Shown: positions 10,922-27,129 of the stretch, in pieces
How the letters are laid out: each line of letters begins with the position of its first letter
How positions within the stretch are numbered: the stretch's first letter is position 1
NCBI RefSeq assembly: GCF_013167455.1
Contig: NZ_CP038328.1
Direction: 5' to 3' (one strand)
DNA: 64,000 nt
DNA from: Escherichia coli O157:H7
GTDB lineage: Bacteria > Pseudomonadota > Gammaproteobacteria > Enterobacterales > Enterobacteriaceae
Program-made: the position numbers and the translations under genes
Notes under the pieces: model-generated
Seen by the model: only the letters and a program-made list of their open reading frames with translations
Databases searched by the model: none
Told to the model about the DNA's origin: nothing

Positions 10922-11580
10922 TGTTCTGGCGCATTTTCCGTCTTGAGCTGCGCGTAGCGTTTCGCCATAGCGCTGAAATCGCCAACCCGCTGTGGTTCTT
11001 CCTGATTGTAATTACCCTTTTTCCGCTCAGTATCGGTCCGGAGCCGCAACTGCTGGCACGTATTGCACCGGGCATTATCTGGGTTGCCGCGCTGCTTTCA
11101 TCCTTGCTGGCGCTGGAACGACTGTTCCGTGACGATTTGCAGGACGGCAGTCTTGAACAATTGATGTTGTTGCCGTTACCCTTGCCCGCCGTTGTGCTGG
11201 CGAAGGTGATGGCGCACTGGATGGTAACCGGTCTGCCGTTACTCATCCTTTCGCCACTGGTAGCAATGCTACTGGGAATGGATGTTTATGGCTGGCAAGT
11301 GATGGCGTTAACGCTACTGCTGGGAACGCCTACGCTTGGCTTTCTCGGTGCACCGGGCGTGGCGCTGACAGTGGGACTTAAGCGCGGTGGTGTGCTGCTC
11401 AGCATACTGGTGTTACCGCTGACTATCCCATTACTCATCTTTGCCACCGCCGCGATGGACGCGGCTTCTATGCATTTGCCCGTTGACGGGTATCTGGCAA
11501 TTTTAGGCGCGTTGCTGGCAGGCACCGCGACATTAAGTCCTTTTGCGACGGCGGCAGCGTTACGAATCAGCATTCAATAA
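10918..11580 (+). CDS. ccmB: Haem exporter permease CcmB
   Basis: 220-aa polytopic membrane protein; overlaps ccmA stop. Confidence 0.9.
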
Positions 11581-11621
11581 CGCTGGATTACTGATTTTTG
11601 TTCGAGTCTGGTATCGAAACT

Positions 11622-12359
11622 ATGTGGAAAACACTGCATCAACTGGCGATCCCACCACGGCTGTATCAAATCTGTGGCTGGTTTATACCGTGGCTGGCAA
11701 TTGCCAGTGTAGTCGTGCTTACCGTCGGCTGGATCTGGGGATTCGGCTTTGCTCCGGCTGATTATCAGCAGGGAAATAGCTACCGCATTATCTACCTGCA
11801 TGTGCCTGCGGCGATCTGGTCGATGGGCATTTATGCATCAATGGCGGTGGCGGCGTTTATTGGCCTTGTCTGGCAGATGAAAATGGCCAACCTGGCGGTG
11901 GCGGCGATGGCCCCCATTGGTGCCGTGTTTACCTTTATTGCCCTGGTTACCGGCTCTGCATGGGGAAAACCGATGTGGGGCACCTGGTGGGTATGGGATG
12001 CACGTCTGACTTCTGAACTGGTGCTGCTGTTTTTGTATGTGGGTGTGATTGCCCTGTGGCACGCCTTCGACGACCGCCGTCTGGCGGGCCGTGCGGCAGG
12101 TATCCTGGTGCTGATTGGCGTGGTGAATCTGCCGATTATTCATTACTCCGTGGAGTGGTGGAACACCCTGCATCAGGGATCAACGCGGATGCAGCAAAGT
12201 ATCGATCCGGCGATGCGTTCGCCGCTGCGCTGGTCGATTTTTGGCTTCCTGCTCCTCTCTGCCACGCTGACGCTGATGCGGATGCGTAATTTGATTTTGC
12301 TGATGGAAAAACGCCGTCCGTGGGTGAGTGAACTGATACTGAAAAGAGGCCGTAAATGA
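11622..12359 (+). CDS. ccmC: Haem lyase / haem exporter subunit CcmC
   Basis: Starts MWKTLHQLAIPP (internal Met of track ORF); WGxxWxWD tryptophan-rich motif. Confidence 0.85.
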   Translation: MWKTLHQLAIPPRLYQICGWFIPWLAIASVVVLTVGWIWGFGFAPADYQQGNSYRIIYLHVPAAIWSMGIYASMAVAAFIGLVWQMKMANLAVAAMAPIGAVFTFIALVTGSAWGKPMWGTWWVWDARLTSELVLLFLYVGVIALWHAFDDRRLAGRAAGILVLIGVVNLPIIHYSVEWWNTLHQGSTRMQQSIDPAMRSPLRWSIFGFLLLSATLTLMRMRNLILLMEKRRPWVSELILKRGRK

Positions 12360-12565
12360 CCCCTGCATTTGCTTCCTGGAATGAATTTTTCGCAATGGGC
12401 GGTTACGCCTTTTTTGTCTGGCTGGCGGTGGTGATGACCGTTATTCCGCTGGTGGTTTTGGTCGTGCACTCGGTGATGCAGCATCGCGCAATTCTGCGTG
12501 GTGTGGCGCAACAGCGGGCGCGTGAGGCGCGTTTACGTGCTGCGCAACAGCAGGAGGCTGCATGA
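12356..12565 (+). CDS. ccmD: CcmD
   Basis: 69-aa small membrane protein in ccm operon position. Confidence 0.85.
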
Positions 12566-13041
12566 ATATTCGCCGTAAAAACCGCTTGTGGATTGCCTGT
12601 GCCGTGTTGGCAGGGCTGGCGCTGACTATCGGTCTGGTGCTATATGCGCTGCGCTCGAATATCGATCTCTTTTATACGCCGGGGGAAATTCTCTACGGCA
12701 AGCGTGAAACTCAGCAGATGCCGGAAGTCGGTCAGCGTCTGCGCGTTGGCGGGATGGTGATGCCGGGTAGTGTGCAGCGCGATCCCAATTCGCTGAAAGT
12801 GACCTTCACCATTTACGACGCTGAAGGCTCAGTGGATGTCTCTTATGAAGGCATTTTGCCGGATCTGTTCCGTGAAGGGCAGGGCGTTGTGGTGCAGGGC
12901 GAGCTGGAAAAAGGCAATCATATCCTCGCAAAAGAAGTGCTGGCGAAACATGATGAAAACTACACGCCGCCAGAAGTTGAGAAAGCGATGGAAGCTAACC
13001 ACCGTCGCCCGGCGAGTGTTTATAAGGACCCAGCATCATGA
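12562..13041 (+). CDS. ccmE: Haem chaperone CcmE
   Basis: 159-aa ORF; operon position. Confidence 0.9.
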
Positions 13042-14981
13042 TGCCGGAAATTGGTAACGGGCTGCTGTGCCTGGCGCTGGGAATTGCGCTGCTGCTGTCC
13101 GTGTATCCGCTATGGGGCGTGGCGCGCGGAGATGCGCGCATGATGGCGTCTTCCCGCTTGTTTGCCTGGCTGCTGTTTATGTCTGTGGCTGGCGCATTTC
13201 TGGTGCTGGTCAATGCTTTCGTGGTCAACGACTTTACCGTCACCTATGTTGCCAGCAACTCCAATACCCAGCTTCCGGTGTGGTATCGCGTGGCGGCTAC
13301 CTGGGGCGCACATGAAGGCTCACTGCTGCTGTGGGTGCTGCTGATGAGCGGCTGGACCTTTGCGGTGGCGATTTTTAGTCAGCGTATTCCGCTGGATATT
13401 GTGGCCCGCGTACTGGCGATAATGGGGATGGTCAGTGTCGGCTTTTTGCTGTTCATTCTCTTTACCTCTAACCCATTCTCACGCACGCTGCCGAACTTCC
13501 CGATTGAAGGGCGCGATCTTAACCCGCTGTTACAGGATCCGGGGCTGATCTTCCATCCGCCTCTGCTTTATATGGGGTACGTGGGTTTCTCGGTGGCGTT
13601 TGCTTTTGCCATTGCTTCTTTGCTGAGCGGGCGTCTGGACAGCACTTATGCGCGTTTTACTCGTCCGTGGACGCTGGCAGCGTGGATCTTCCTGACGCTC
13701 GGCATCGTGCTCGGTTCCGCATGGGCCTATTACGAACTCGGCTGGGGTGGCTGGTGGTTCTGGGATCCGGTAGAAAACGCCTCGTTTATGCCGTGGCTGG
13801 TGGGGACTGCGCTGATGCACTCACTGGCGGTCACTGAACAACGCGCCAGCTTCAAAGCGTGGACATTACTGCTGGCAATCAGTGCCTTCTCGTTGTGTCT
13901 GTTGGGGACTTTCCTCGTGCGTTCCGGCGTGCTGGTATCGGTACACGCGTTTGCGTCTGATCCGGCGCGCGGTATGTTTATCCTCGCCTTTATGGTGCTG
14001 GTGATTGGCGGTTCGCTGCTGCTGTTTGCCGCGCGTGGACACAAAGTTCGCTCACGCGTAAACAATGCGCTGTGGTCGCGGGAATCTTTGCTGTTAGCGA
14101 ACAACGTTTTGCTGGTCGCCGCGATGCTGGTGGTGTTGCTGGGGACGCTGCTGCCGCTGGTGCACAAGCAACTGGGACTGGGCAGTATTTCGATTGGCGA
14201 ACCGTTCTTCAACACCATGTTTACCTGGCTGATGGTGCCGTTTGCGCTACTGCTGGGTGTCGGTCCTCTGGTGCGCTGGGGGCGCGATCGCCCACGTAAA
14301 ATCCGCAATTTATTGATTATCGCCTTCATCTCTACGCTGGTGCTGTCTCTGCTGTTGCCGTGGCTGTTCGAAAGCAAAGTTGTGGCGATGACGGTGCTCG
14401 GCCTGGCAATGGCCTGCTGGATTGCGGTGCTGGCAATTGCGGAAGCTGCGCTACGTATTTCACGCGGCACGAAAACCACCTTCAGTTATTGGGGGATGGT
14501 GGCGGCTCACCTGGGGCTGGCAGTGACAATTGTTGGCATTGCCTTTAGCCAGAACTATAGCGTTGAGCGTGATGTGCGCATGAAGTCCGGCGATAGCGTC
14601 GATATTCATGAATATCGCTTCACCTTCCGTGATGTCAAAGAGGTGACTGGCCCGAACTGGCGTGGCGGTGTGGCGACTATCGGCGTAACGCGAGAGGGTA
14701 AACCGGAAACGGTGCTGTATGCGGAAAAACGTTATTACAACACTGCCGGGTCGATGATGACCGAAGCGGCAATTGACGGCGGCATCACGCGTGACCTGTA
14801 CGCCGCGCTCGGTGAAGAGCTGGAAAACGGCGCGTGGGCTGTGCGTCTTTACTACAAACCATTTGTTCGCTGGATTTGGGCGGGCGGGCTGATGATGGCG
14901 TTGGGCGGACTGCTGTGTCTGTTTGATCCTCGCTATCGTAAGCGCGTGAGCCCGCAAAAAACTGCGCCGGAGGCTGTATGA
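13038..14981 (+). CDS. ccmF: Cytochrome c-type biogenesis protein CcmF
   Basis: 647-aa polytopic membrane protein; W-rich motif. Confidence 0.9.
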
Positions 14982-15535
14982 AGCGCAAAGTATTGTTAAT
15001 TCCGTTGATTATCTTCCTGGCGATTGCCGCGGCGCTGCTGTGGCAGCTGGCGCGTAATGCCGAAGGGGATGATCCGACCAATCTGGAATCGGCGCTCATT
15101 GGCAAGCCTGTGCCGAAGTTTCGTCTCGAATCACTGGACAATCCGGGGCAGTTTTATCAGGCGGATGTGCTGACTCAGGGCAAACCAGTGCTGCTTAACG
15201 TCTGGGCGACCTGGTGTCCGACCTGCCGTGCGGAACATCAATATCTGAATCAGCTTTCTGCGCAGGGCATCCGCGTGGTCGGCATGAACTATAAAGACGA
15301 TCGCCAGAAGGCAATCAGCTGGCTGAAAGAGCTGGGCAATCCTTACGCGCTAAGCCTTTTTGATGGCGATGGCATGTTAGGGCTGGATCTCGGTGTCTAT
15401 GGCGCGCCAGAAACGTTTCTTATTGACGGCAACGGCATCATTCGCTATCGCCATGCGGGCGATCTCAATCCTCGCGTCTGGGAAGAAGAGATCAAGCCGC
15501 TGTGGGAGAAATACAGTAAGGAGGCCGCACAATGA
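14978..15535 (+). CDS. ccmG: Thiol:disulfide interchange protein CcmG/DsbE
   Basis: 185-aa ORF; thioredoxin WCPTC motif. Confidence 0.9.
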   Translation: MKRKVLLIPLIIFLAIAAALLWQLARNAEGDDPTNLESALIGKPVPKFRLESLDNPGQFYQADVLTQGKPVLLNVWATWCPTCRAEHQYLNQLSAQGIRVVGMNYKDDRQKAISWLKELGNPYALSLFDGDGMLGLDLGVYGAPETFLIDGNGIIRYRHAGDLNPRVWEEEIKPLWEKYSKEAAQ

Positions 15536-16584
15536 GGTTTTTATTGGGCGTGCTGATGCTGATGATCTCCGGCTCAGCGCTGGCGACCATCGACGTGTTG
15601 CAGTTTAAAGATGAAGCACAGGAACAACAGTTCCGTCAGCTCACTGAAGAACTGCGCTGCCCGAAATGCCAGAATAACAGCATTGCCGATTCCAACTCGA
15701 TGATTGCCACCGACCTGCGCCAGAAAGTGTATGAACTGATGCAGGAAGGCAAAAGTAAGAAAGAGATTGTCGATTATATGGTGGCGCGTTACGGCAACTT
15801 CGTCACTTACGATCCGCCGTTAACGCCGCTGACCGTGCTGCTGTGGGTGCTTCCGGTAGTGGCTATTGGTATTGGCGGTTGGGTCATATACGCCCGTTCG
15901 CGGCGTCGGGTACGCGTGGTACCGGAAGCGTTTCCTGAACAAAGCGTGCCGGAAGGTAAGCGTGCCGGATATGTTGTTTATCTGCCGGGTATTGTGGTGG
16001 CGTTAATTGTGGCTGGCGTCAGCTACTACCAGACTGGCAATTATCAGCAGGTGAAAATCTGGCAGCAGGCCACGGCACAGGCTCCGGCGTTGCTGGACAG
16101 GGCGCTGGATCCGAAAGCCGATCCGCTCAACGAAGAAGAGATGTCGCGCCTTGCGCTGGGGATGCGTACTCAACTGCAAAAAAATCCGGGAGATATAGAA
16201 GGTTGGATTATGTTGGGTCGCGTTGGCATGGCGCTGGGTAACGCCAGTATCGCCACCGATGCATACGCTACTGCGTATCGCCTCGATCCGAAAAACAGCG
16301 ATGCCACACTGGGTTATGCTGAAGCGTTGACACGTTCATCTGATCCCAACGACAACCGCCTCGGCGGCGAACTGCTGCGCCAGTTGGTGAGAACGGACCA
16401 TAGCAATATTCGTGTGTTAAGCATGTATGCGTTTAATGCCTTTGAGCAGCAGCGATTTGGCGAAGCCGTTGCCGCGTGGGAGATGATGTTGAAACTCTTA
16501 CCTGCCAACGATACTCGCCGTGCGGTGATTGAACGTAGTATCGCGCAGGCGATGCAACATTTGTCGCCGCAGGAGAGTAAATAA
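15532..16584 (+). CDS. ccmH: Cytochrome c maturation protein CcmH
   Basis: 350-aa ORF; CPKC motif; TPR-like C-terminal half. Confidence 0.9.
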   Translation: MRFLLGVLMLMISGSALATIDVLQFKDEAQEQQFRQLTEELRCPKCQNNSIADSNSMIATDLRQKVYELMQEGKSKKEIVDYMVARYGNFVTYDPPLTPLTVLLWVLPVVAIGIGGWVIYARSRRRVRVVPEAFPEQSVPEGKRAGYVVYLPGIVVALIVAGVSYYQTGNYQQVKIWQQATAQAPALLDRALDPKADPLNEEEMSRLALGMRTQLQKNPGDIEGWIMLGRVGMALGNASIATDAYATAYRLDPKNSDATLGYAEALTRSSDPNDNRLGGELLRQLVRTDHSNIRVLSMYAFNAFEQQRFGEAVAAWEMMLKLLPANDTRRAVIERSIAQAMQHLSPQESK

Positions 16585-16589
16585 AAAGA

Positions 16590-16620
16590 GGCCCGATGGT
16601 GATGCCATCGGGCTATTTTT
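16590..16620. terminator. Bidirectional intrinsic terminator between convergent ccmH and narP
   Basis: Hairpin GCCCGATGG-tgatg-CCATCGGGC followed by TATTTTTA. Confidence 0.7.
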
Positions 16621-17266
16621 ATTGTGCCCCGCGTTGTTGCAGGAACAGAATGGTGGCTGCCACGCGTGAGCGGACATTGAGTTTGCGCAGTAGATTGCGA
16701 ATATGTACTTTTACTGTCTGCTCGGAAATATTCAACACCGAGGCAATCTGTTTATTTGACAGCCCCTGTGCCAGCTCGTGCAGAACATCCAGCTCGCGCT
16801 CCGTCAGCACGCTGAAGGGATCTTCTTCCGCGCCAAACATTTCACGTTCATGTAAGTACTGATTGACGCGTTCGCTAAAGACTTTGCTGCCTTTCGCTCC
16901 GGCACGAATCGCTTCCAGCAACACTTCCGGGTCGCTGTCTTTCAACAGATAACCGTCTGCGCCTGCGTCTATCAGTGCAAAGACATCGCTGGAGGCATCT
17001 GATACGGTCAGGATAATAATTTGCGCGGTAACGCCATCCCTGCGCAAGGCATTGAGGGTATCCAGGCCACTCATACCTTTCATATTGAGATCCAGCAAGA
17101 TCACGTCGATATCCAGTCTATTCGCCAGATCGATAGCACTCGCGCCGTCGCCCGCTTCGGCGACCACTTCAAAGCCAGGATCAAGCTCCAGTAACTGACG
17201 AACACCGCGTCGCATAAGTGGATGATCATCCACAATCATCACCTGAAAAGGCGTTGCTTCAGGCAT
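16619..17266 (-). CDS. narP: Nitrate/nitrite response regulator NarP
   Basis: Starts MPEATPFQVMIVDDHP; receiver domain plus LuxR-type HTH. Confidence 0.9.
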   Translation of the reverse strand: MPEATPFQVMIVDDHPLMRRGVRQLLELDPGFEVVAEAGDGASAIDLANRLDIDVILLDLNMKGMSGLDTLNALRRDGVTAQIIILTVSDASSDVFALIDAGADGYLLKDSDPEVLLEAIRAGAKGSKVFSERVNQYLHEREMFGAEEDPFSVLTERELDVLHELAQGLSNKQIASVLNISEQTVKVHIRNLLRKLNVRSRVAATILFLQQRGAQ

Positions 17267-17585
17267 AGTAGTCTCCTGAGGTTTTATTAGAATCATTATG
17301 TTTGAGCGTAGCGTTGGTAACGCTACCAGGCGCGTGAATGTTACCCCATTTTATGTATGGACATGTAGCGAAAACTACAACCTTGTCGTTCGCTTTGGCA
17401 TCATTTTCATTATAAAGACGGAATTTTGCATCAGCTTCTCATCAAGAAAAACAACTAAAAAATCAATCACAATACTTGTGCATTTCTTTAAACAGTTTTT
17501 AAAAACTGACTCCGGGTATGGAGCTATGGGTATTTTCTGTACCCAATGCTTTTAACTGCAATTAATTTCATAGGATGAAAGCTCA

Positions 17586-20177
17586 ATGCATCAATCTGGT
17601 TCTGTTTCTCTTTGTCGTTCCGCAATATCTGTTCTGGTAGCTACAGCGTTATATTCACCCATAGCATTGGCATCAACAGTTGAGTATGGTGAGACAGTTG
17701 ATGGTGTTGTCCTGGAAAAAGATATCCAGCTGGTTTATGGGACCGCCAATAATACGAAAATCAATCCTGGCGGAGAACAGCATATTAAAGAATTTGGTAT
17801 AAGTAGTAATACTGAAATTAACGGCGGGTATCAGTACATTGAAATGAATGGCACCGCAGAATACTCAGTATTAAATGATGGTTATCAAATTGTTCAAATG
17901 GGTGGCGCGGCAAACCAGACTACGCTCAATAATGGTGTGCTACAGGTTTATGGCGCAGCGAATGATCCCACGATTAAAGGCGGGCGCTTAATCGTTGAAA
18001 AAGATGGGATTACCGTCCTTGCCGCTATCGAAAAGGGAGGATTACTGGAGGTTAAAGAGGGGGGATTAGCGATTGCGGTAGATCAGAAAGCAGGCGGTGC
18101 TATTAAAGCAAGCACGCGGGTCATGGAGGTATTCGGAACAAACCGTCTCGGTCAGTTCGAAATCAAGAATGGTATTGCTAACAATATGCTGTTGGAAAAC
18201 GGCGGAAGTTTGCGAGTTGAAGAAAATGACTTCGCTTATAATACTACTGTAGATAGTGGCGGCTTACTGGAGGTTATGGATGGCGGGACTGCAACTGGCG
18301 TTGATAAAAAAGCAGGCGGAAAATTAATTGTCTCAACGAATGCGCTGGAAGTGAGTGGTACAAACAGTAAAGGCCAATTTAGTATAAAAGATGGTGTGTC
18401 AAAAAATTATGAACTGGATGATGGTTCCGGGCTTATTGTTATGGAGGACACGCAGGCCATTGACACTATCCTCGATGAGCATGCCACTATGCAATCGCTG
18501 GGAAAGGATACTGGTACGAGAGTGCAGGCAAATGCGGTATATGATCTCGGTCGATCAGATCAGAATGGAAGTATAACGTATTCCTCTAAAGCCATCTCTG
18601 AAAATATGGTTATCAACAATGGCCGCGCTAACGTCTGGGCTGGCACAATGGTTAACGTGTCAGTCAGAGGAAATGATGGCATTCTTGAGGTTATGAAGCC
18701 GCAAATAAATTATGCACCCGCAATGTTGGTGGGTAAGGTAGTGGTTTCTGAGGGCGCTTCTTTAAGAACGCATGGTGCCGTGGATACCAGCAAAGCGGAT
18801 GTTTCGCTCGAAAATAGCGCATGGACCATCATTGCCGATATCACTACGACGAACCAAAACACCCGCCTTAACTTAGCCAACCTTGCGATGTCTGGCGCAA
18901 ATGTGATTATGATGGATGAGTCAGTGACTCGTTCATCTGTGACGGCAAGTGCGGAAAATTTCACTACGTTGACCACCAATACCCTGTCGGGAAACGGCAA
19001 TTTTTATATGCGTACCGATATGGCGAATCATCAGAGCGATCAGCTCAACGTCACCGGTCAGGCAACAGGTGATTTCAAAATATTCGTGACGGACACCGGT
19101 GCCAGCCCGGCAGCAGGAGATAGCCTTACACTGGTAACAACGGGCGGCGGTGATGCTGCATTTACGTTGGGCAATGCCGGAGGCGTTGTTGATATCGGTA
19201 CGTATGAATATACCTTGCTGGATAATGGTAACCATAGCTGGAGTCTGGCAGAGAATCGCGCGCAAATTACCCCTTCAACCACTGATGTGCTGAATATGGC
19301 GGCCGCACAACCGCTGGTATTTGATGCAGAACTGGACACCGTGCGTGAGCGTCTTGGTAGCGTAAAAGGCGTTAGTTACGATACGGCGATGTGGAGTTCG
19401 GCAATTAACACCCGCAACAACGTGACCACTGATGCGGGAGCTGGTTTTGAGCAAACATTGACGGGCCTGACGCTCGGTATCGATAGCCGTTTCTCCCGTG
19501 AAGAAAGCAGCACAATTCGCGGCTTGTTCTTTGGTTACTCTCATTCTGATATTGGTTTTGATCGCGGCGGCAAAGGCAATGTCGATAGCTATACCCTGGG
19601 GGCTTATGCCGGTTGGGAGCATCAGAACGGTGCCTATGTTGATGGAGTGGTGAAAGTTGACCGTTTTGCCAACACCATCCATGGCAAGATGAGTAATGGG
19701 GCAACAGCGTTTGGCGATTACAATAGTAACGGCGCGGGTGCTCATGTCGAGAGCGGGTTCCGTTGGGTTGACGGATTGTGGAGTGTTAGACCCTATCTGG
19801 CCTTTACCGGCTTTACCACAGATGGTCAGGACTACACGTTATCAAACGGCATGCGCGCGGATGTGGGAAATACCCGGATATTACGCGCTGAAGCGGGAAC
19901 GGCGGTAAGCTATCACATGGACCTGCAAAACGGTACGACGCTGGAACCCTGGCTGAAAGCCGCCGTGCGTCAGGAATACGCCGATTCTAACCAGGTGAAA
20001 GTTAATGACGATGGCAAATTTAATAATGATGTGGCTGGAACCCGTGGCGTTTATCAGGCTGGGATAAGGTCATCGTTTACCCCGACGTTAAGCGGTCATT
20101 TGTCAGTCAGCTATGGCAATGGCGCAGGGGTAGAATCGCCGTGGAATACCCAGGCGGGTGTGGTCTGGACGTTCTGA
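17586..20177 (+). CDS. yejO: Autotransporter adhesin-like protein YejO (intact)
   Basis: 863-aa ORF; signal peptide, repetitive beta-helix-like passenger, C-terminal beta-barrel ending in WTF. Confidence 0.8.
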   Translation: MHQSGSVSLCRSAISVLVATALYSPIALASTVEYGETVDGVVLEKDIQLVYGTANNTKINPGGEQHIKEFGISSNTEINGGYQYIEMNGTAEYSVLNDGYQIVQMGGAANQTTLNNGVLQVYGAANDPTIKGGRLIVEKDGITVLAAIEKGGLLEVKEGGLAIAVDQKAGGAIKASTRVMEVFGTNRLGQFEIKNGIANNMLLENGGSLRVEENDFAYNTTVDSGGLLEVMDGGTATGVDKKAGGKLIVSTNALEVSGTNSKGQFSIKDGVSKNYELDDGSGLIVMEDTQAIDTILDEHATMQSLGKDTGTRVQANAVYDLGRSDQNGSITYSSKAISENMVINNGRANVWAGTMVNVSVRGNDGILEVMKPQINYAPAMLVGKVVVSEGASLRTHGAVDTSKADVSLENSAWTIIADITTTNQNTRLNLANLAMSGANVIMMDESVTRSSVTASAENFTTLTTNTLSGNGNFYMRTDMANHQSDQLNVTGQATGDFKIFVTDTGASPAAGDSLTLVTTGGGDAAFTLGNAGGVVDIGTYEYTLLDNGNHSWSLAENRAQITPSTTDVLNMAAAQPLVFDAELDTVRERLGSVKGVSYDTAMWSSAINTRNNVTTDAGAGFEQTLTGLTLGIDSRFSREESSTIRGLFFGYSHSDIGFDRGGKGNVDSYTLGAYAGWEHQNGAYVDGVVKVDRFANTIHGKMSNGATAFGDYNSNGAGAHVESGFRWVDGLWSVRPYLAFTGFTTDGQDYTLSNGMRADVGNTRILRAEAGTAVSYHMDLQNGTTLEPWLKAAVRQEYADSNQVKVNDDGKFNNDVAGTRGVYQAGIRSSFTPTLSGHLSVSYGNGAGVESPWNTQAGVVWTF

Positions 20178-20237
20178 TAACAGACAATAAACAGGCCCTG
20201 ATGTGTCGCGGTCTGTTTATCGAATTAAATGCAGATA

Positions 20238-20270
20238 TAAAAAAACCAACCTTTACGGTTGGTTTTTTTG
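20238..20270 (+). terminator. Intrinsic terminator after yejO
   Basis: aaaaaACCAACC-ttta-CGGTTGGttttttt. Confidence 0.7.
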
Positions 20271-20275
20271 GGATT

Positions 20276-20292
20276 TTTGGTCGGCACGAGAG
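20276..20292. repeat. attL: 17-bp direct repeat TTTGGTCGGCACGAGAG, a copy of the tRNA-Pro 3' end
   Basis: Identical 17-mer at 29850-29866 overlapping the tRNA-Pro 3' end. Confidence 0.85.
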
Positions 20293-20353
20293 TAGTTTAA
20301 TTGAGTATGTAACTACATGATTTTAAATAATATGCTTGATTCAACTTTTAAAC

Positions 20354-20377
20354 CGTATAACTAAACGTATAACTAAA
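20354..20377 (+). repeat. Two tandem CGTATAACTAAA motifs at left end (candidate integrase arm-type sites)
   Basis: Same 12-mer present four times near the right end (29665-29720). Confidence 0.5.
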
Positions 20378-20559
20378 ATCATTTGCTGAAAAAGTGTACA
20401 ATTTAAATGCGAGTTTTCCTGTGGTAAAAGCTCCAACCGTAACGATGTTCGTTATGGTTGCCTTGATGGTCTGCGTGGTCATTATGACCATTCAGGATTT
20501 GAAGGGTGACGCTTCCGACTTCCTCAAATTGAGGTTTCCGAAAATATCAGCGGGTTAGG

Positions 20560-20860
20560 CCAGAGTGCAAATTTGCACTCTGGAACAATTCCAACCAGTA
20601 ATCAGCGCAATTTTGCGCTTTGCTTTAAGTTCAGCGAGTAACCGAAGGCGGAATTACGCCCTCGGTACTCACATATGAGAAACGATATTTCTTCCACCGA
20701 TACCCTTTATTTGGGTATCGCGAGTAAGCCCCAAAATCTGGGTGTTACTCTTACTACCCAAACTACGGGTATTTTCCGTAATTTCATGGTCGAGTTGCAG
20801 ATCTGCAACTCACCCACCAGCCAACGCAATTTTGCGCTTTGCTTTAAGTTCAACCAGTTA
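20560..20860. other. Hairpin-dense non-coding left arm of island with duplicated composite element
   Basis: Perfect 24-bp palindrome CCAGAGTGCAAATTTGCACTCTGG (20561-20584); GAGTTGCAGATCTGCAACTC (20791-20810); near-identical direct repeats containing GCGCAATTTTGCGCTTTGCTTTAAGTTCA (20605-20633 and 20826-20853); further hairpins at 20641-20666 and 20698-20718; no ORF with RBS. Confidence 0.6.
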
Positions 20861-21139
20861 CCGCCGTAACCGCTCCGGCTTCTTCCAGTGGTACGTAATT
20901 TTTGCTTTTTCCCTGTACGTCTGCACGCGGCGACGGTAGGCCAGCATTTCAAGAACGCGGATCCGTATGTTGCGCATATCAACGCCATTAAGTTCTATAC
21001 CATCACGGCGCATCACCTCAGCAACCACACGCGCGTAATTTTCGGCGGTCACGCTGTACGGCTGCGCGGTTTTTTCGTCAGCCTGCTGGCTGATTCCGGC
21101 GACGCGGCGGATTAATCCCAGTATTTCGGCTTCTGTCAT
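20858..21139 (-). CDS. Hypothetical 93-aa protein, last gene of island packaging/capsid operon
   Basis: ORF with RBS AGGTGGAG 41 nt downstream of the capsid-like gene stop; no recognisable motif. Confidence 0.5.
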   Translation of the reverse strand: MTEAEILGLIRRVAGISQQADEKTAQPYSVTAENYARVVAEVMRRDGIELNGVDMRNIRIRVLEMLAYRRRVQTYREKAKITYHWKKPERLRR

Positions 21140-21180
21140 TTCTCCACCTGGTCAGCTATTAAACTGCGAAAATTTCGTAA

Positions 21181-22149
21181 TTATCCCGATACGGGGATCA
21201 CCATATCGGGATTGATGCCGGAAAAATCAGCTTTCGCCAGAACGGTGACGGCCTTATCGAGTTTTTGCCATCCGCAATAGGTGATTGCCCTGAACGCTGT
21301 AGCGTCATTCTGGAAAAGGCTAACCGCCCCTGATTCGGTTTTTATTACCGCCTCATCAGTTGGGGTTATAACCGTGGCTTCAACGTTAATAATCAGCTTT
21401 TGAGCGTCTATCAGCATCATGCGATCCGCCTGTTCGCTCACAATTACCGGTATTCTCAAAAGCTCTATCTGCCAGAACTCAGCATCAGTAAGCTGTAATG
21501 CGTTTTCTACGGGCAAGATTAGCGACGACGTGGAAAGCGTGTTACCGTTCGCTATGTGCTTTTTGAAAAGCTCTATGAAGTTTTCGGCCTCATCAGCACC
21601 ATTAAGCACGCCCTCAGGGGATACGCCAGCCACCTCCTGATCACTGGAAAGAAATTTTTTATCTATTTCTTTCACCGATTCCGATGTGATCAAGTCTCTG
21701 ATCGCTGAATTGGTGCCAGGGGTGCTAAATTTGATTAGCTCGTTATTCAGCATCACAATAGCGCCAAGTTTGCACAGTTTTAGCGCGCTTTCGTTTACTT
21801 CTCCCTCTTTGACAGGGATTTCTTCTGCTTCTTTAAGCCATTTACTACCCTTGCCTGATATTGACTGCAATTTTGCGCCAAACGGAAGATTAAGCGCGCT
21901 GCTGATTAGCTTGCCTGGTACAGACTGCGAAAAAATATATTCTCCAAGCTCTCTTACTATCGGCTCTGCCACCAGCGACGGCATATTATCCGTAGTCATT
22001 CCGGCAATAATGGATTTTTCAAGAAATTTCGATACTGCCGGATCATTTCTTTTCGTCATCTCTATAGCGTCTGCATGGCTGAATTTACACGATGTAAGCA
22101 CGCTGGCGGCGCGAACTGCCGAAACGCCTTTCATGTTTTTAGAAATCAT
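21181..22149 (-). CDS. Putative HK97-fold major capsid protein-like
   Basis: ~322 aa; segments GKGSKWLKEAEEIPVKEGEVNESALKLCKLGAIVMLNNELIKFS and EGVLNGADEAENF resemble conserved Phage_capsid (HK97 family) motifs from memory; start taken at second ATG (9 nt after GGAGG). Confidence 0.5.
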   Translation of the reverse strand: MISKNMKGVSAVRAASVLTSCKFSHADAIEMTKRNDPAVSKFLEKSIIAGMTTDNMPSLVAEPIVRELGEYIFSQSVPGKLISSALNLPFGAKLQSISGKGSKWLKEAEEIPVKEGEVNESALKLCKLGAIVMLNNELIKFSTPGTNSAIRDLITSESVKEIDKKFLSSDQEVAGVSPEGVLNGADEAENFIELFKKHIANGNTLSTSSLILPVENALQLTDAEFWQIELLRIPVIVSEQADRMMLIDAQKLIINVEATVITPTDEAVIKTESGAVSLFQNDATAFRAITYCGWQKLDKAVTVLAKADFSGINPDMVIPVSG

Positions 22150-22300
22150 CTTCTTCATCCTCCTGGAAGCACGGGTTTAGTGTTTCGTGAAAATATGGCA
22201 TCAGAACAGCGGCGGCCTGTAACCGTATTTCGGTCGGCTGCTGCTTGTCGTTCATGATTTCCGTGAGTACATCAATAGGGTCTGTGATGTATTCGCTCAT
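22139..22300 (-). CDS. Small acidic protein (53 aa) between terS-like and capsid-like genes; below ORF-track threshold
   Basis: ATG with GAGGT RBS 11 nt after terS stop; MSEYITDPIDVLTEIMNDKQQ...EDEEDDF; overlaps capsid-like gene start. Confidence 0.4.
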   Translation of the reverse strand: MSEYITDPIDVLTEIMNDKQQPTEIRLQAAAVLMPYFHETLNPCFQEDEEDDF

Positions 22301-22311
22301 AGTTCGCTACC

Positions 22312-22800
22312 TCAGTGTTTTAAGTCTGTTGGTGGCTTAGGGATGGGGAACCGATTTGAGTAGACACTAGCGGCATTGAGTTTTTTAACCTCTTTTTTCC
22401 CAATGCTGCCGATCTTGCGGTGGGTGAACTGGGCCAGCTTAAACGCGGCATCTAAAGCCAGTTTTGGATCTGTGTCCATGTTGTCAATCAGTATCCTGCC
22501 CATTGCTTTGATGGGGTCGGGTAGGCCGTTATCCATCATCTCAATGGTGTTAATTGATGCCCGTTCCGGTGTAACTTTTTCGGTAACTTTCTTTGTAACT
22601 TTTTTCGGTTTTGTAACCTGAAAAGTTACATCAGAAGTTACAGCCTTAAGATACTTTTTCACCTCAGGATCGTTGGATAGCTGCCAGCCTTTAACCCTTG
22701 CGGTCTTTTCGCTGTATCCAGCATGTATAGCGGCTTCCGTGGGATTTGCGCCCCTTGATAACGCATCAGCAAACCGCTTTTTTTTGGTCGTTAATGCCAT
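22312..22800 (-). CDS. Terminase small subunit-like protein (TerS)
   Basis: Starts MALTTKKKRFADALSRGANPTEAAIHAGYSEKTARVKGWQL, matching the recalled TerS HTH motif (Terminase_2-type); GAGG RBS upstream; the 46-aa N-terminal extension in the track ORF is rejected. Confidence 0.6.
   Translation of the reverse strand: MALTTKKKRFADALSRGANPTEAAIHAGYSEKTARVKGWQLSNDPEVKKYLKAVTSDVTFQVTKPKKVTKKVTEKVTPERASINTIEMMDNGLPDPIKAMGRILIDNMDTDPKLALDAAFKLAQFTHRKIGSIGKKEVKKLNAASVYSNRFPIPKPPTDLKH
22565..22643. repeat. Array of AAAGTTAC / GTAACTTT repeats inside terS-like gene (candidate pac/terminase recognition site)
   Basis: At least six copies in both orientations, encoding the KKVTKKVTEKVT peptide; similar copies upstream at 22821-22850. 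Confidence 0.4.
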
Positions 22801-22927
22801 GCAAAAACCTCGTTTTGAGGGGGTGTAACTTTTCGTGTAACTTTTTTGAAAAGCAAAATTTTCTACGAATGAGACGGGGGGCGGTGTCCAGGGCGATCGA
22901 CTTTCCGGCCGGAACACTCCCCCCCTG

Positions 22928-23089
22928 TCATTGCTCACCGAGTAACGAGATCAGGCCTTCAACTTCATCACTCAGCTTGTTTATTCGTGTCTCAAGCTCT
23001 GCGATCTTTTCCATCAATGGCGCTATGGTGTCTCTTGTTTCCTCGCCAATGGCTTTAATGATGCTTGCCTCGCGTTCTGTGATAGCCAT
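22928..23089 (-). CDS. Small coiled-coil protein (53 aa); below ORF-track threshold
   Basis: ATG with GAGG RBS 8 nt upstream, 3 nt after stop of preceding ORF; MAITEREASIIKAIGEE... Confidence 0.4.
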   Translation of the reverse strand: MAITEREASIIKAIGEETRDTIAPLMEKIAELETRINKLSDEVEGLISLLGEQ

Positions 23090-23092
23090 TGT

Positions 23093-23287
23093 TTACGCCT
23101 CACTTGTTGCAATGCCCAGGCGTTCGCGTAACAGTACGCGCGCAAGATGCCCTATTGTTGGTGTTGCCGCCCTGCCGTAGATACCTGATTCATTCATCCG
23201 GCGCACAATATCGAACTGCAACTTTTTAAGCTCGTTAAGGATTTCATGATCAATCATCACGGTAGCGCTTTGCTTTATCTCTTCCAC
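23093..23287 (-). CDS. Small hypothetical protein (64 aa, GTG start), first gene of packaging operon; possibly DNA-binding
   Basis: ORF with GGAG RBS; located just downstream of a terminator. Confidence 0.4.
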   Translation of the reverse strand: MEEIKQSATVMIDHEILNELKKLQFDIVRRMNESGIYGRAATPTIGHLARVLLRERLGIATSEA

Positions 23288-23374
23288 TTTGTTTTCTCCA
23301 GATACTTATCATTGCATAACCAGTATTTTCGATAGATTATCATTAATTAACCATCTTTGAAGATATATGAGATC

Positions 23375-23399
23375 GAAAAAAAGCCGGATTGCTCCGGCT
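23375..23399 (-). terminator. Intrinsic terminator ending the replication module
   Basis: Minus-strand AGCCGGAGCAATCCGGCT followed by TTTTTTT. Confidence 0.7.
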
Positions 23400-23417
23400 A
23401 TGTGCTCACTTCTTCGG

Positions 23418-23657
23418 TTATTCTCCAGCGCTTTTAACGTTGATGGTTGTTACCTGTTCCGCTTCGGCAATCTCCCGTTCTGTCAGCGTGGCAAAGTTTG
23501 CCGCCGCTGTGGTCATGAATGCGCTTATCAGTTCGGGATGTGCTTTCGCATATCCTTCCCCGGCGTTGCGGTCGATGATTTTTATCGACACCCTTAACCA
23601 GTGTTCCGTCAAATCAAGGGCGTGCGATTGTGATTTTTTTGTGTGCTTCGCTGTCAT
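23418..23657 (-). CDS. Hypothetical 79-aa protein downstream of origin
   Basis: ORF only; weak RBS. Confidence 0.4.
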   Translation of the reverse strand: MTAKHTKKSQSHALDLTEHWLRVSIKIIDRNAGEGYAKAHPELISAFMTTAAANFATLTEREIAEAEQVTTINVKSAGE

Positions 23658-23699
23658 AGGCTTTATCTCACAGCAGTAAATTAAAATTTTTGCGTTTTA

Positions 23700-23935
23700 A
23701 CCCTTCACCTGTTCACCTTTTGATATTTTATCTTTTAATTCATAATGTTAAGGGGTGAACAGTTTCACAAAAACTATTCACCAACTATTCACCACTGTTC
23801 ACCCTTGAAGCTCAATAAACAATCAAAAAGGTGAACAGTGAATAGTTTGGTGAACAGTTCATAAATAACTGTTCACCCTATAATATACTGATATAAAAGA
23901 TATTTATGACAGGGTGAACAGTGGTGAACAGTTAT
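23700..23935. repeat. Iteron array (GGTGAACAG / CTGTTCACC, with CTATTCACC variants) and AT-rich tracts: putative island replication origin
   Basis: At least 8 perfect 9-mers in both orientations plus variants, immediately 3' of the primase-helicase gene. Confidence 0.75.
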
Positions 23936-23944
23936 TCCATAAGT

Positions 23945-25762
23945 TTAATTTTTGCTATCGTCATTAGTGACCGATACACATGACGGCATCCAGTCTTCTG
24001 ATTCCTCCGTCAGTGTCACGTTTGAACGCAAACCGTGCTTCGTTTTCCGTTTCATATACTCCCTGCCATATTCCGCCATTGCCCCCGGCATATCTTTACC
24101 GAAGCGCGTCAGTGTTACAGGTTTACCGAATCCGTGTGCCCTCATATATGCCAGATAGGCGTGATAAAGATACCTGCGCGGACTGAACGGAATAATTTCG
24201 GCATTACCCACTAACAGACCATCACACATTACCGACGACATGAGATAGCCGCAGAAGTCCACCAGCGAATCGCCCTCGCGTTTTATCACCAGAGCTTCTT
24301 CTGATTTCTGCTGCTCATACAGCAGGCGTTTAGCTTCGTCCTGGTCAGAAAAACGAGTAAGCAGGTGGCGAATCACAACCGCCAGCTCTCCTTCTATTTT
24401 TTCTGCCAGCATGGGGTCGCGTTCGTTTTCCGGTACAACCTCCGAAAAATTGAATATCACCCGACGACGTGAAATCCCCCCGCTGCGGTCACTGAATGAC
24501 ATGGCGTTATTGTTCACCGCCAACACTACCGCCTGAATGCGTGTTGAGTAGGGGGCTTTATGCTTCGGGTCGATTGCCACCTTGTCACCGCCTGTAATGG
24601 CCTTAATTCCTGCGCCATCACCAGCGTAACGGGTCATATCCGGCATGATAATCAGCGAAAAGCCAACCACTAACGCGCGTTCCCTGGCATCTTCCAGCGC
24701 CTTCATGCTTGCCGATACCGTGTTGGCCTTACCCGCCAGCATGGTGCAAATCTCCGCCATCACGCTTTTACCACTTCCCCCTGGACCTGTTACCTCAATG
24801 AATAACTGCCAGTCGTACCGGTTCGCCAGCACCATGAATAATGCAGCCAGTACGCGATCCGCCTTGCGGTCATTCTCAGCCACCGAACGGCGTAACCACT
24901 TCCAGAAATTCGGCGCATGTGTTGCCAGCGTTTCCCCCTCTGCTGGTGGGCTGAAAGGTAATTCACTGGCAATTAACAACCAGTCGTTTTTGTTATGCTC
25001 CCGAAAATCGCCTGTCCGGGTATCAAAAACACCGTTACTGAATCCAATCAGGTTACGGGCTGTATTCCCCATTACAGGCAAACTTAACTTCATGGTATCG
25101 ACCGCCGATTTAATGGCGTTCTGCGAATAGCTGATCTCCGCATCAATGAAAATCTGTGCCATAGCTCGCTGTAATTCTTTATCCTGTACTGGCTCCCATA
25201 CAACGCCGTTGTAATAGTGAACAGTGTCAGAGTCAGCATGAATCGCCAGTTCACCGCCATAATGTGCCAGGAGAACTTCGCCGCGTTGACTTGCTCCCAT
25301 CTGGTTAAGCGCCAGTGATGAAGCGTTATCGTCTTTTACCCGCTCTTTTTTCTTTACAGGCAGTTCAACTACCTTTTTCTTTTCCGCCTGCTCTGCCCGT
25401 TCACGTTCCAGATATTCGCGCCAGTTCTCCCGTTTCTGGCTGTGCATTCCTTCAGGGTAATAATCAGCATCCCTGACACCTGCCGCTGCCAGTTTCTGCC
25501 CGATGGTATTAACAAGCCCCGAACGCAATAACCCCGCCTGATAGAGACGCACGCGATAGCGTCCGTCCGGTACGATTTGCAGGTTGTCCAGTTCGGCAAG
25601 TTGTTGCTCTCCAAGCCAGACAGGTGGCACGTTATCGCCAGCCAGTCGCCCGTCCTGTTCCTGCCACTGCTTCGCATGTGCCCACGCATCACTACCCGCA
25701 AAAATGATGACTTCCGTCATTTTGTCACGTGGCTGGTGTTTTAAATTTGGCGCTTTTTTCAT
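23945..25762 (-). CDS. Replication initiator primase-helicase (P4 alpha / D5-like)
   Basis: ~605 aa; Walker A VTGPGGSGKS in C-terminal half; N-terminal region consistent with a primase-type domain; ATGA start/stop overlap with upstream ORF. Confidence 0.8.
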   Translation of the reverse strand: MKKAPNLKHQPRDKMTEVIIFAGSDAWAHAKQWQEQDGRLAGDNVPPVWLGEQQLAELDNLQIVPDGRYRVRLYQAGLLRSGLVNTIGQKLAAAGVRDADYYPEGMHSQKRENWREYLERERAEQAEKKKVVELPVKKKERVKDDNASSLALNQMGASQRGEVLLAHYGGELAIHADSDTVHYYNGVVWEPVQDKELQRAMAQIFIDAEISYSQNAIKSAVDTMKLSLPVMGNTARNLIGFSNGVFDTRTGDFREHNKNDWLLIASELPFSPPAEGETLATHAPNFWKWLRRSVAENDRKADRVLAALFMVLANRYDWQLFIEVTGPGGSGKSVMAEICTMLAGKANTVSASMKALEDARERALVVGFSLIIMPDMTRYAGDGAGIKAITGGDKVAIDPKHKAPYSTRIQAVVLAVNNNAMSFSDRSGGISRRRVIFNFSEVVPENERDPMLAEKIEGELAVVIRHLLTRFSDQDEAKRLLYEQQKSEEALVIKREGDSLVDFCGYLMSSVMCDGLLVGNAEIIPFSPRRYLYHAYLAYMRAHGFGKPVTLTRFGKDMPGAMAEYGREYMKRKTKHGLRSNVTLTEESEDWMPSCVSVTNDDSKN

Positions 25763-26058
25763 TTCTGCTCTCTCCACGCGGCAATCATGTTTTTCAGTTC
25801 CTGTAGTTTTTTATCAACATCCATACATGGCACATGGTTATTTCTGGAAGGCGGGATTTCCCGCCTGAATCTGCTAATAAAGATCTCCACGTTCAGCGAA
25901 CTATGAAATGAATAGCCATCACGAATAAAATACACACGGTCAAACATCAGTTCTTTTACCGTTACTCTGTTACCGTTCTTATCCAGATAAATAGCGCCGG
26001 GGATAATTTTTGGGTGTGCATAACCGCTGGCAGTCAAGCCAGATAAATATGTTCTCAT
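25759..26058 (-). CDS. Hypothetical protein (99 aa), translationally coupled to primase
   Basis: ORF with RBS; its stop overlaps the primase start (ATGA). Confidence 0.5.
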   Translation of the reverse strand: MRTYLSGLTASGYAHPKIIPGAIYLDKNGNRVTVKELMFDRVYFIRDGYSFHSSLNVEIFISRFRREIPPSRNNHVPCMDVDKKLQELKNMIAAWREQK

Positions 26059-26064
26059 GATTAT

Positions 26065-26385
26065 TTATCCCCGATTTGAATCAGTATTCGCTTTCTTTAT
26101 GGCATTTAATGCATCTGTGGCATTTTCAATGGTGCACCGTAACGAAATATTAAACTGTCCAAGCATTGCCAGTAACAAACCGATATTACCCATATCAATG
26201 CGCATGACCTTTTCGTCATAGTCCTCATTTTCTGACGCATGCCACATCAGGCTACCAATTGACGCAACAGCCATTGATATATTGTCAGTAGCCCCATCCG
26301 CAGCGGAATAAACCTTTTTAGCAATATCATGCTCACAGTTAAAATGCGGATTAATCAGGTACTGGTAATTTGACATATCAGGCAT
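26065..26385 (-). CDS. Hypothetical protein (106 aa, starts MPDMSNYQY)
   Basis: Start overlaps upstream stop (ATGCCTGA); track ORF N-terminal extension rejected. Confidence 0.5.
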   Translation of the reverse strand: MPDMSNYQYLINPHFNCEHDIAKKVYSAADGATDNISMAVASIGSLMWHASENEDYDEKVMRIDMGNIGLLLAMLGQFNISLRCTIENATDALNAIKKANTDSNRG

Positions 26386-26935
26386 GGCACACCCCCTGAC
26401 GAATACGGGCGGCGAATACAGCAACACAACCGGACGGGCAACGGCTACGCGCTTCGCGTTCCGTCCAGGCGGTTACGTGGATGATTTGATGTTCTGACGC
26501 GCCAAAGATGATAAAGCGCCAGAGAAAGGCGGTTTGAGAATGTACAAGGGTAGGGATAGTAGCCATGTTGGCAGCCTCCTCAGTGTGGTTAAGATAACCG
26601 CCACCGGAAACGCCAATTTCGCTGGTGGCGGACTGTACAGGGTTGGCGTAACCGGACACTGAAGAAACCGGCGCGGATTGCTCCGCCCCCGTACAGCCCA
26701 CCATTGATAAGGTGTGACTATGCGGCACAAAAAAACACGCGGGGCGCGTGTTATGCGCTTCAGTTTTGCCCAGGACGCCAATCCCGGCACCCGTTTTATG
26801 AGGTGCGCGGGAATCATAGCTATTTTCGACACTGGCGATCAACTGGTTTTTTTCTCCGATATTCAGGGCCAGAAAACGCCACACAAAGGCCGTTTGTGTG
26901 TGTACAAGGTGTGGTATATGATTTACGGCAACCAT
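26378..26935 (-). CDS. Hypothetical protein with internal tandem duplication (possible Ash/Icd-like small-protein family); may be one 185-aa ORF or two in-frame cistrons
   Basis: AGGAG RBS before ATG at 26935; motif IPxLVHxQTAFxWRF occurs twice (N-terminus and at the internal Met at 26566, preceded by GAGGAGG); family name is an unverified recollection. Confidence 0.45.
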   Translation of the reverse strand: MVAVNHIPHLVHTQTAFVWRFLALNIGEKNQLIASVENSYDSRAPHKTGAGIGVLGKTEAHNTRPACFFVPHSHTLSMVGCTGAEQSAPVSSVSGYANPVQSATSEIGVSGGGYLNHTEEAANMATIPTLVHSQTAFLWRFIIFGASEHQIIHVTAWTEREARSRCPSGCVAVFAARIRQGVCHA

Positions 26936-26966
26936 AACGGCTCCTAGTTTACGTTGTTGGTTAGAA

Positions 26967-27008
26967 GCCCTGCGAGTGGTAACGACACTTGCGGGGCTTT
27001 GTCTTTTC
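26967..27008 (+). terminator. Plus-strand-specific terminator-like hairpin within the 5' leader region of the minus-strand replication operon
   Basis: 12-bp stem GCCCTGCGAGTG/CACTTGCGGGGC; both mismatches are G-U wobbles only in the plus-strand RNA; followed by TTTGTCTTTTC. Confidence 0.45.
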
Positions 27009-27026
27009 ATCGATTACCTTGATAAA

Positions 27027-27108
27027 GGTGTCAGCCACTATATTAGTAACAGGTGTCAGCCACGTCAATAGTGTTTTTCCGTTTTCTTGTGTGTATACTG
27101 TCAGCCAC
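27027..27108. promoter_or_regulatory. Divergent promoter region with three GTCAGCCAC operator-like repeats
   Basis: GGTGTCAGCCAC at 27027-27038 and 27052-27063, TGTCAGCCAC at 27099-27108 adjacent to a TATACT -10-like hexamer. Confidence 0.55.
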
Positions 27109-27129
27109 CTAATAACGAGGAAATCAGAT

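Follow-up and report, generated by a model that had tools for sequence, protein, structure and literature searches.

Uninterrupted yejO autotransporter gene of the Escherichia coli O157:H7 lineage at the locus disrupted by IS5K in K-12

The closest described systems to YejO are the autotransporters Ag43 (Flu), AIDA-I and TibA, in which a signal peptide precedes a beta-helical passenger, built from AIDA-type repeats each about 19 residues long, and a barrel. YejO shares this layout and this type of repeat, carries two stretches matching the heptosylation-target repeat TIGR04415, and has a passenger homologous to the solved passengers of Ag43 and TibA (E=1e-36 to 1e-25). Its passenger is shorter than theirs, at about 530 aa, and, unlike AIDA-I and TibA, it has no heptosyltransferase gene of the aah/tibC type adjoining it, as its neighbors are narP and the proL region. 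Scores against the Ag43 (NF033177, 143.6 bits) and AIDA-I (NF033176, 69.9 bits) equivalog models both fell far below the cut-off of 1200; therefore, YejO represents a distinct paralogous family, related to these proteins without being a member of either group. Resemblance to the Bordetella autotransporters was found as well, with a pertactin-type junction region (PF03212, aa 431-555) and a barrel homologous to those of BrkA and Vag8, the match spanning the entire BrkA translocator structure. In contrast to pertactin, BrkA and Vag8, however, this homology was confined to the C-terminal half of YejO, and the N-terminal passenger was of the AIDA type. Both the intact gene and its interruption by IS5K in K-12 were previously annotated and published.

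The gene order in the 64-kb window (the whole stretch of DNA analyzed), ccmH-narP-yejO-(island)-proL-yejM, matched that of K-12, O55:H7 and O157:H7, and narP, the divergent upstream neighbor of yejO, is annotated at the same position in all three. The features at the narP side of the locus were as follows:

16619..17266, minus strand: narP, nitrate/nitrite response regulator, 215 aa (NCBIfam NF007708 NarP equivalog, 456 bits, full length)
17267..17585, no strand: divergent intergenic spacer between narP and yejO, 319 bp, 36.7% GC, without insertion sequence
17586..20177, stop codon included, plus strand: yejO, intact gene for an 863-aa type Va (AIDA-I-type) autotransporter (ORF list, Pfam, TIGR01414, O157:H7 identity)

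A preliminary description had reported a spacer of about 320 bp with no transposase ORF and no insertion sequence between narP and yejO, and this was confirmed. The spacer has the same length in K-12, with 2 mismatches; its length is therefore no lineage marker, and what tells the lineages apart is whether the ORF runs unbroken through its first 70 nt. The only spacer ORF of at least 60 aa (85 aa, 17298..17555, plus strand) was rejected as a gene or transposase remnant, having no Pfam match and no annotation in K-12, O55:H7 or O157:H7. A simple scan of 17200..20400 found no consensus sigma-70 promoter in the spacer; its two matches, both on the minus strand, were internal and below the shuffle count.

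The 863-aa frame at 17586..20177 (plus strand) opened with ATG and contained zero internal stops in the ORF list. Its position between narP and proL and its near-identity to annotated YejO identified it as the orthologue of yejO, which is b2190 in K-12 and WP_000554210.1 in O157:H7. Spacer and gene showed 100% nucleotide identity to O157:H7 FRIK804, Z866 and NCCP 13918, where the PGAP label is an intact “autotransporter YejO” with no pseudogene flag, and the exact 863-aa protein carries that name on at least 1000 contigs. The gene was collinear with annotated 863-aa YejO genes, bearing out the earlier view that it is intact, and comparison with intact orthologues, in which frameshifts had been named as the sign against that view, revealed no frameshift or premature stop in 17586..20177. 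The window yejO is an ordinary uninterrupted E. coli allele, the same as the O157:H7 copy; the sole difference from typical O157:H7 is an island occupying the downstream proL site.

Within the protein, the following parts were recognized:

17586..17672, plus strand: predicted Sec signal peptide, aa 1-29, MHQSGSVSLCRSAISVLVATALYSPIALA followed by ST (inspection and Kyte-Doolittle hydropathy)
18039..18476, plus strand: passenger segment of 74 aa duplicated in tandem, aa 152-223 and 226-297 (AIDA-type strand-loop-strand repeats)
18876..19250, plus strand: pertactin-like junction/autochaperone region closing the passenger on its C-terminal side, aa 431-555 (PF03212, E=2.9e-45; homology to 1dab and 2iou)
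19389..20174, plus strand: translocator beta-barrel domain, aa 602-863, ending ...VVWTF (PF03797, 3qq2)

The signal peptide, read by inspection and hydropathy only, showed R11 followed by a hydrophobic core (residues 12-28) with a Kyte-Doolittle mean of up to 2.15 over 11-residue windows, and ALA before S at positions 27-29/30. Pfam AIDA matched two stretches of the passenger (E=3.6e-51). An offset scan and a shuffle-controlled local alignment revealed the duplication, giving an identity peak at offset 74 and an alignment score of 172 vs. 28 ± 5 for shuffles; blastp of YejO against itself returned the identity match only and not the repeat. A 789-aa YejO variant in APEC E19057 was missing exactly aa 168-241, one 74-aa repeat. 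In the C-terminal half, TIGR01414 covered aa 456-863 (373 bits), PF03797 (Autotransporter) covered aa 602-841 at profile positions 1-254 of 255 (E=2.5e-45), and residues 3-284 of 284 of the BrkA translocator 3qq2 aligned to aa 582-863 (E=7.6e-19), while the C-terminus, ...QAGVVWTF, was an aromatic-ended beta-signal. Further homologues in the PDB were the Ag43 passengers 7koh (1e-36) and 4kh3 (2e-28), TibA 4q1q (1e-25), Vag8 7akv (6e-36) and pertactin 1dab (2.5e-18). Inspection, profiles and homology together recovered the signal peptide, passenger with junction region, barrel and aromatic beta-signal by which a type Va autotransporter is recognized in sequence. The architecture can be regarded as settled because Pfam, NCBIfam and PDB sequence matches converged on it, with E down to 1e-111, and an 863-aa ORF with full-length profile matches lies far beyond what chance would produce. 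All the parts first proposed for the ORF, namely a signal peptide, a repetitive passenger, a C-terminal beta-barrel and an aromatic terminus, were accordingly present.

In MG1655, yejO is annotated as joined from two fragments around IS5K (insH8), an element of 1195 bp lying inside the gene after nt 67 (codon 23), among the signal-peptide codons. This K-12-type yejO::IS5K allele is marked by IS5 ends (GGAAGGTGCG...) and by a flanking 4-bp TTAT duplication. In the window, the site was continuous, and the target stood as a single copy:

17649..17652, plus strand: TTAT, unoccupied IS5K target, single copy in the window and duplicated in MG1655 (4-base overlap of the MG1655 blastn segments; junctions read)

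No IS5 terminal repeats occurred anywhere in the 64-kb window, and blastn found no similarity to IS5K or IS1203 in the whole of it. The tentative statement in the preliminary description that laboratory K-12 has an IS5 element in this neighborhood was correct as to its presence, but the element lies within yejO and not between narP and yejO. Alignment with MG1655, suggested there as a check, accordingly did not show identical organization, as IS5K interrupts the K-12 gene. The proposal that the window comes from a lineage other than K-12 held up, since the flanks (31 kb) were 99.99-100% identical to O157:H7 Z866 vs. 97.4-99.3% to K-12, and the locus places the window in the O157:H7 lineage.

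Once IS5K and one TTAT were taken out of the K-12 gene, a collinear frame of 2592 nt remained, uninterrupted by stops or frameshifts; what sets the window apart from K-12 is therefore simply that it lacks this one insertion. Compared with the reconstructed K-12 yejO, the window allele carried 60 nt and 28 aa differences (97.7% nt and 96.8% aa identity), the latter clustering at aa 142-179. Among such differences there might be missense changes that prevent the barrel from inserting or the passenger from folding, so that an open yejO would encode a defective protein. We consider this highly improbable, as only 3 of the 28 fell in aa 561-863, the barrel and passenger profiles were matched at full length, the terminal aromatic beta-signal was in place, and the differences are allelic variation common to hundreds of O157:H7 and O55:H7 genomes, which share these variants among 318 records at least 99% identical to the window allele.

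With a 34-nt junction probe, the IS5-yejO junction was found in 357 of 5,426 complete E. coli genomes and the empty site in 5050, the two adding up to 5407, the full set of genomes matched at all. All 60 of 60 evenly sampled junction matches were K-12-type (MG1655, W3110, DH1, DH5alpha, BW25113, J53, MC4100, O16:H48), making the insertion lineage-specific. This distribution bears on whether the uninterrupted state could be secondary, arising from an IS5-bearing ancestor by precise excision or recombinational repair. Since insertion sequences can excise precisely and alleles can be replaced, such a history is possible in principle, with nothing positive pointing to it. Against it, the junction was K-12-type in all the genomes listed, the empty site belonged to all other lineages, the single TTAT bore no scar, and the allele was 100% identical to that of the O157:H7 clone and 2.3% diverged from K-12. 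A secondary origin is effectively refuted by the genome distribution. We conclude that 17586..20177 is very probably the ancestral-state uninterrupted yejO of the O157:H7 lineage, encoding a type Va autotransporter, and that the IS5K pseudogenization in K-12 is derived. It is the K-12 reference that forms the exception at this locus, which makes yejO::IS5K a clean K-12 lineage marker and the K-12 “pseudogene” label unsuited for transfer to other strains; beyond correct annotation, this carries little weight.

The states of yejO across the species were more varied. In a sample of 60 rows taken at even intervals from one ranking, about 60% of genomes had an uninterrupted, collinear yejO and about 20% had remnant pseudogenes. 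B2-type lineages carried deletion remnants, ST131 was without yejO, certain lineages had the 789-aa form, and sporadic strains showed independent insertions of IS1203, IS3, IS1A and IS2; IS5 is a further element found in the gene. Outside B2, most E. coli carry an intact yejO. Because it is so often lost, through remnants, insertions and the ST131 absence, yejO is clearly dispensable, and it could be silent under many conditions.

Comparison of the O157 gene with the reconstructed K-12 yejO gave a dN/dS of 0.29 overall, 0.35 for the passenger and 0.13 for the barrel; the neighboring genes were more tightly constrained, with 0.07 for narP and 0.01 for ccmH. These ratios indicate continuing purifying selection on YejO, strongest on the barrel. 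They also weigh against the idea that yejO is intact yet cryptic, effectively silent (for example, silenced by H-NS and heading for loss) and of no phenotypic meaning in this strain. That idea draws on the AT-rich upstream spacer (36.7% GC vs. 51% in the window) with no consensus sigma-70 match, the recurrent pseudogenization and the ST131 absence described above, and the place of the yejO fragment among the least-detected genes in K-12 RNA-seq compendia, although the gene is IS-disrupted there. Ongoing purifying selection (dN/dS 0.13-0.35), retention of a collinear uninterrupted copy in about 60% of evenly sampled genomes, and domains that each match their profile end to end argue in the other direction, and we regard a cryptic yejO as possible but rather unlikely. 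Functional E. coli autotransporters are typically silenced in laboratory conditions; silencing of yejO would therefore not imply loss of function.

For the ancestral, uninterrupted gene, a route to the cell surface can be proposed from sequence and homology. The predicted 29-residue Sec signal peptide would direct YejO to the periplasm, where the C-terminal domain (approximately aa 582-863), with its terminal ...WTF as the putative beta-signal, would enter the outer membrane as a beta-barrel aided by BAM. The passenger (approximately aa 30-560) would then reach the surface as a predicted beta-helix of strand-loop-strand repeats of about 19 residues, with the duplicated 74-aa segment as part of it and a pertactin-like cap at its C-terminal end. 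There it probably acts as an adhesin or a self-associating aggregation factor. Secretion, surface display and adhesion are thus suggested by resemblance to known systems. For adhesion, homology is the sole basis because the literature that could be searched yielded no experimental work on what YejO does; there, yejO appears as a deletion serving as a neutral K-12 control, in IS5 studies, in presence/absence surveys and on OMP arrays. We suggest only tentatively that intact YejO of the O157:H7 type may be expressed and work as a self-associating adhesin. In that case, the repeated losses of yejO (IS5 in K-12, remnants in B2/ST131, and sporadic IS1203, IS3, IS1 and IS2) and the variation in the number of 74-aa repeats would be the outcome of selection acting on aggregation or on exposure to immunity, and YejO would be an uncharacterized colonization factor of EHEC.

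On its downstream side, yejO was followed by these features:

20238..20270, plus strand: terminator-like hairpin, 14-pair stem and T-run, 61 nt past the yejO stop (terminator scan)
20276..20292, no strand: direct repeat of 17 bp, TTTGGTCGGCACGAGAG, copying the 3' end of proL and forming the yejO-side (low-coordinate) att border of the island (read directly; blastn vs. K-12 and O157:H7)
29852..29928, minus strand: proL, tRNA-Pro(GGG) (ARAGORN, Rfam, K-12 and O157:H7 annotation)

The hairpin is kept in K-12, because the alignment with K-12 extends to 20292. Just downstream of yejO, a P4-like satellite island of 9.56 kb (20293..29849) was observed at proL, which lies about 100 bp from yejO in K-12 and O157:H7 and is shifted by 9.56 kb in the window by this island.

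The gene yejO was uninterrupted in the window. The preliminary description had reported an intact ORF separated from narP by a spacer of about 320 bp without a transposase gene, and both its coordinates and this observation were confirmed, with a measured spacer of 319 bp. The features concerned were as follows.

16619..17266, - strand: narP (annotated-length form), upstream neighbour of yejO, 215 aa; NarP equivalog, 456 bits end to end
17586..20177, + strand: yejO, a single 863-aa ORF with an ATG start in the ORF list
17649..17652: TTAT in single copy, duplicated in the MG1655 record (L001) at 2288915..2288918 and 2290114..2290117
20238..20270: terminator-like hairpin, 3' of the yejO stop codon

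The spacer (17267..17585) had a GC content of 36.7%, against 51.0% for the window, and held only one ORF of at least 60 aa (17298..17555, 85 aa), which had no Pfam match and is unannotated in K-12, O55:H7 and O157:H7. The IS5 terminal repeat was absent from the window when two mismatches were tolerated, and blastn detected no similarity to IS5K or IS1203 across the whole 64 kb.

In the MG1655 record, yejO (b2190) is a pseudogene whose two pieces are joined around IS5K/insH8. Window positions 16591..17652 aligned by blastn with one side of IS5K and 17649..20292 with the other, overlapping by exactly four bases, and the junctions read ...GCGTTAT/GGAAGGTGCG... and ...CGCACCTTCC/TTATATTC.... The junction sequences and the four-base overlap therefore placed the 1195-bp element after yejO nucleotide 67, where it breaks codon 23 of the signal-peptide region and is flanked by a TTAT duplication. 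The duplicated TTAT is a misfit to the canonical YTAR target (CTAA/CTAG-type) usual for IS5 (PMC11677980). Removal of IS5K and one TTAT from K-12 yielded a collinear 2592-nt frame with no stop and no frameshift, differing from the window's yejO at 60 nucleotides and 28 amino acids, so that the gene is free of frameshifts relative to this allele. The K-12 narP–yejO spacer was also 319 bp, with 2 mismatches. The earlier interpretation, that the organization differs from K-12, was thus supported with one correction: an IS5 element does occur in this K-12 neighbourhood, but it lies inside yejO and not between narP and yejO.

A 34-nt probe spanning the K-12 IS5 junction, which seeds only where that junction exists, found a match in 357 of 5,426 complete E. 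coli genomes. When 60 of these matches were sampled evenly, every one was a K-12-type genome of 4.5-4.8 Mb, among them MG1655, W3110, DH1, DH5alpha, BW25113, J53, MC4100, AB1157, NCM3722 and O16:H48. An 80-nt empty-site probe was covered to at least 80% in 5,050 genomes, and the two sets together (5,407) accounted for every genome with any match. Because the junction was confined to K-12-type genomes among the sampled matches and the empty site was found in 5,050, the IS5 insertion in yejO is a derived state that marks the K-12 lineage; the window has the ancestral arrangement.

The window also came from a lineage other than K-12, as had been suspected. The spacer and yejO were 100% identical to those of O157:H7 strains FRIK804, Z866 and NCCP 13918, and the flanks differed from Z866 at 2 of 17,026 positions (3267..20292) and 0 of 13,902 positions (29850..43751), or 99.99-100% identity, versus 97.4-99.3% for K-12 across the same backbone. 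The Z866 PGAP annotation lists an intact 'autotransporter YejO' (WP_000554210.1) without a pseudogene flag; the identical protein occurs under that name on at least 1000 public contigs, and its 90%-identity cluster holds 16,859 sequences. Everything at the yejO locus is already annotated and published. An Rfam L25 ribosomal-protein leader upstream of rplY (33644..33669, - strand) was expected for this backbone.

The signal peptide, repetitive passenger and beta-barrel with aromatic terminus ascribed to YejO were borne out by its domain matches, termini and internal duplication. In Pfam, YejO matched AIDA over two stretches at E=3.6e-51 and Pertactin over aa 431-555 at E=2.9e-45, and aa 602-841 spanned positions 1-254 of the 255 in the Autotransporter beta-domain profile (E=2.5e-45); NCBIfam matched TIGR01414 (aa 456-863, 373 bits) and the strand-loop-strand repeat TIGR04415. 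The N-terminus, MHQSGSVSLCRSAISVLVATALYSPIALA/ST, was assigned as a signal peptide by inspection alone, on the strength of basic R11, an A-x-A site and a core of hydrophobic residues (12-28); the protein ends in ...VVWTF. The passenger carries a tandem 74-aa duplication (aa 152-223 versus 226-297), with a local alignment score of 172 against 28 +/- 5 in shuffles. The gene thus encodes all sequence elements of a type Va autotransporter, and YejO is, as judged from sequence, a classical one of the AIDA-I kind; it scored far under the cut-offs of the Ag43, AIDA-I and BafA equivalog models. Structures of Ag43 (7koh, 1e-36; 4kh3, 2e-28) and TibA (4q1q, 1e-25) were homologous to the passenger, and those of Vag8 (7akv, 6e-36) and pertactin (1dab, 2.5e-18) to the C-terminal half, while all 284 residues of the BrkA translocator (3qq2) aligned with aa 582-863. 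By analogy with Ag43, AIDA-I, TibA, pertactin and BrkA, YejO would be exported by Sec, its barrel would be inserted with the help of BAM, and its passenger would be translocated, fold as a beta-helix and probably mediate adhesion or self-association. The literature that could be searched yielded no functional study of YejO. NCBIfam recognized repeats of the heptosylation-target type, and no heptosyltransferase gene adjoins yejO in the window or the O157:H7 annotation.

Across the 5,426 genomes, at least 80% of the spacer and yejO was covered in 4,281. One match ranking was sampled evenly at 60 rows: about 36 had a collinear, uninterrupted yejO; 8 were split by IS elements (IS5 in four K-12 genomes, IS3 twice, IS1203 and IS1A), 3 (about 5%) were shorter, 12 (about 20%) covered only 38-43% of the query, and 1 retained next to none of it. 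The B2-type strains APEC O18 and uk_P46212 kept remnants of 768-923 nt between narP and proL (L004 1820..2587 and L005 1820..2742, in locus coordinates), with flagged internal stops and no C-terminus, a condition shared by about 20% of the sampled genomes. This fits a published account in which ST131 has no yejO. APEC O78:H4 E19057 (L006 1820..4189) encodes an intact 789-aa YejO lacking exactly aa 168-241, one 74-aa repeat unit (window 18087..18308), which points to repeat-number variation through recombination within the passenger. In O157:H7 F8798 (L007 1804..3110), IS1203 interrupts a yejO otherwise 100% identical to the window's, and an IS2 insertion was seen outside the 60-row sample. Independent insertions of IS1203, IS2, IS3-family elements and IS1A in unrelated strains (also matches H30, H113, H128 and H134) indicated that yejO appears to be a repeated target of IS elements. 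Given the remnants, shorter forms and insertions, yejO is dispensable and has been lost repeatedly.

This frequent loss, together with an AT-rich spacer in which a consensus promoter was not found, would fit a gene that is intact yet silent, the main alternative, which we consider rather unlikely. Selective constraint speaks against a functionless gene: between the O157 allele and the reconstructed K-12 allele, dN/dS was 0.29 for the whole gene (passenger 0.35, barrel 0.13), compared with 0.07 for narP and 0.01 for ccmH. Hence, yejO is under purifying selection, relaxed as is typical for a surface protein.

A 9,557-bp island (20293..29849), with all its genes on the - strand, separates the yejO terminator from proL.

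20276..20292 and 29850..29866: att repeats, a 17-bp direct repeat TTTGGTCGGCACGAGAG of the tRNA 3' end
21181..22158, - strand: capsid-like protein
22312..22938, - strand: small terminase
23945..25777, - strand: D5/P4-type primase
25759..26058, - strand: DUF4222 protein
26378..27010, - strand: Ash-family regulator, a mechanically called 210-aa ORF
26621..26708 and 26730..26806, - strand: C4 antisense RNA (Rfam, 77.6 bits) and isrK Hfq-binding RNA (66 bits)
28392..29651, - strand: tyrosine integrase
29852..29928: proL, tRNA-Pro(GGG), with the island at its 3' end

The island resembles a phage satellite of the P4-like or PICI-like type. The proL site of Z866 was empty, and the whole island occurred in none of the 5,426 complete E. 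coli genomes; the best match was O111:H11 88-19539 (90% cover, 95% identity), and in O55:H7 DEC5A the corresponding site is occupied by a mosaic relative. The true start of the Ash-family ORF may lie further downstream than called. The C4 and isrK RNAs are adjacent and overlap this ORF, and the pair suggests an RNA immunity region of the P1/P4 type.
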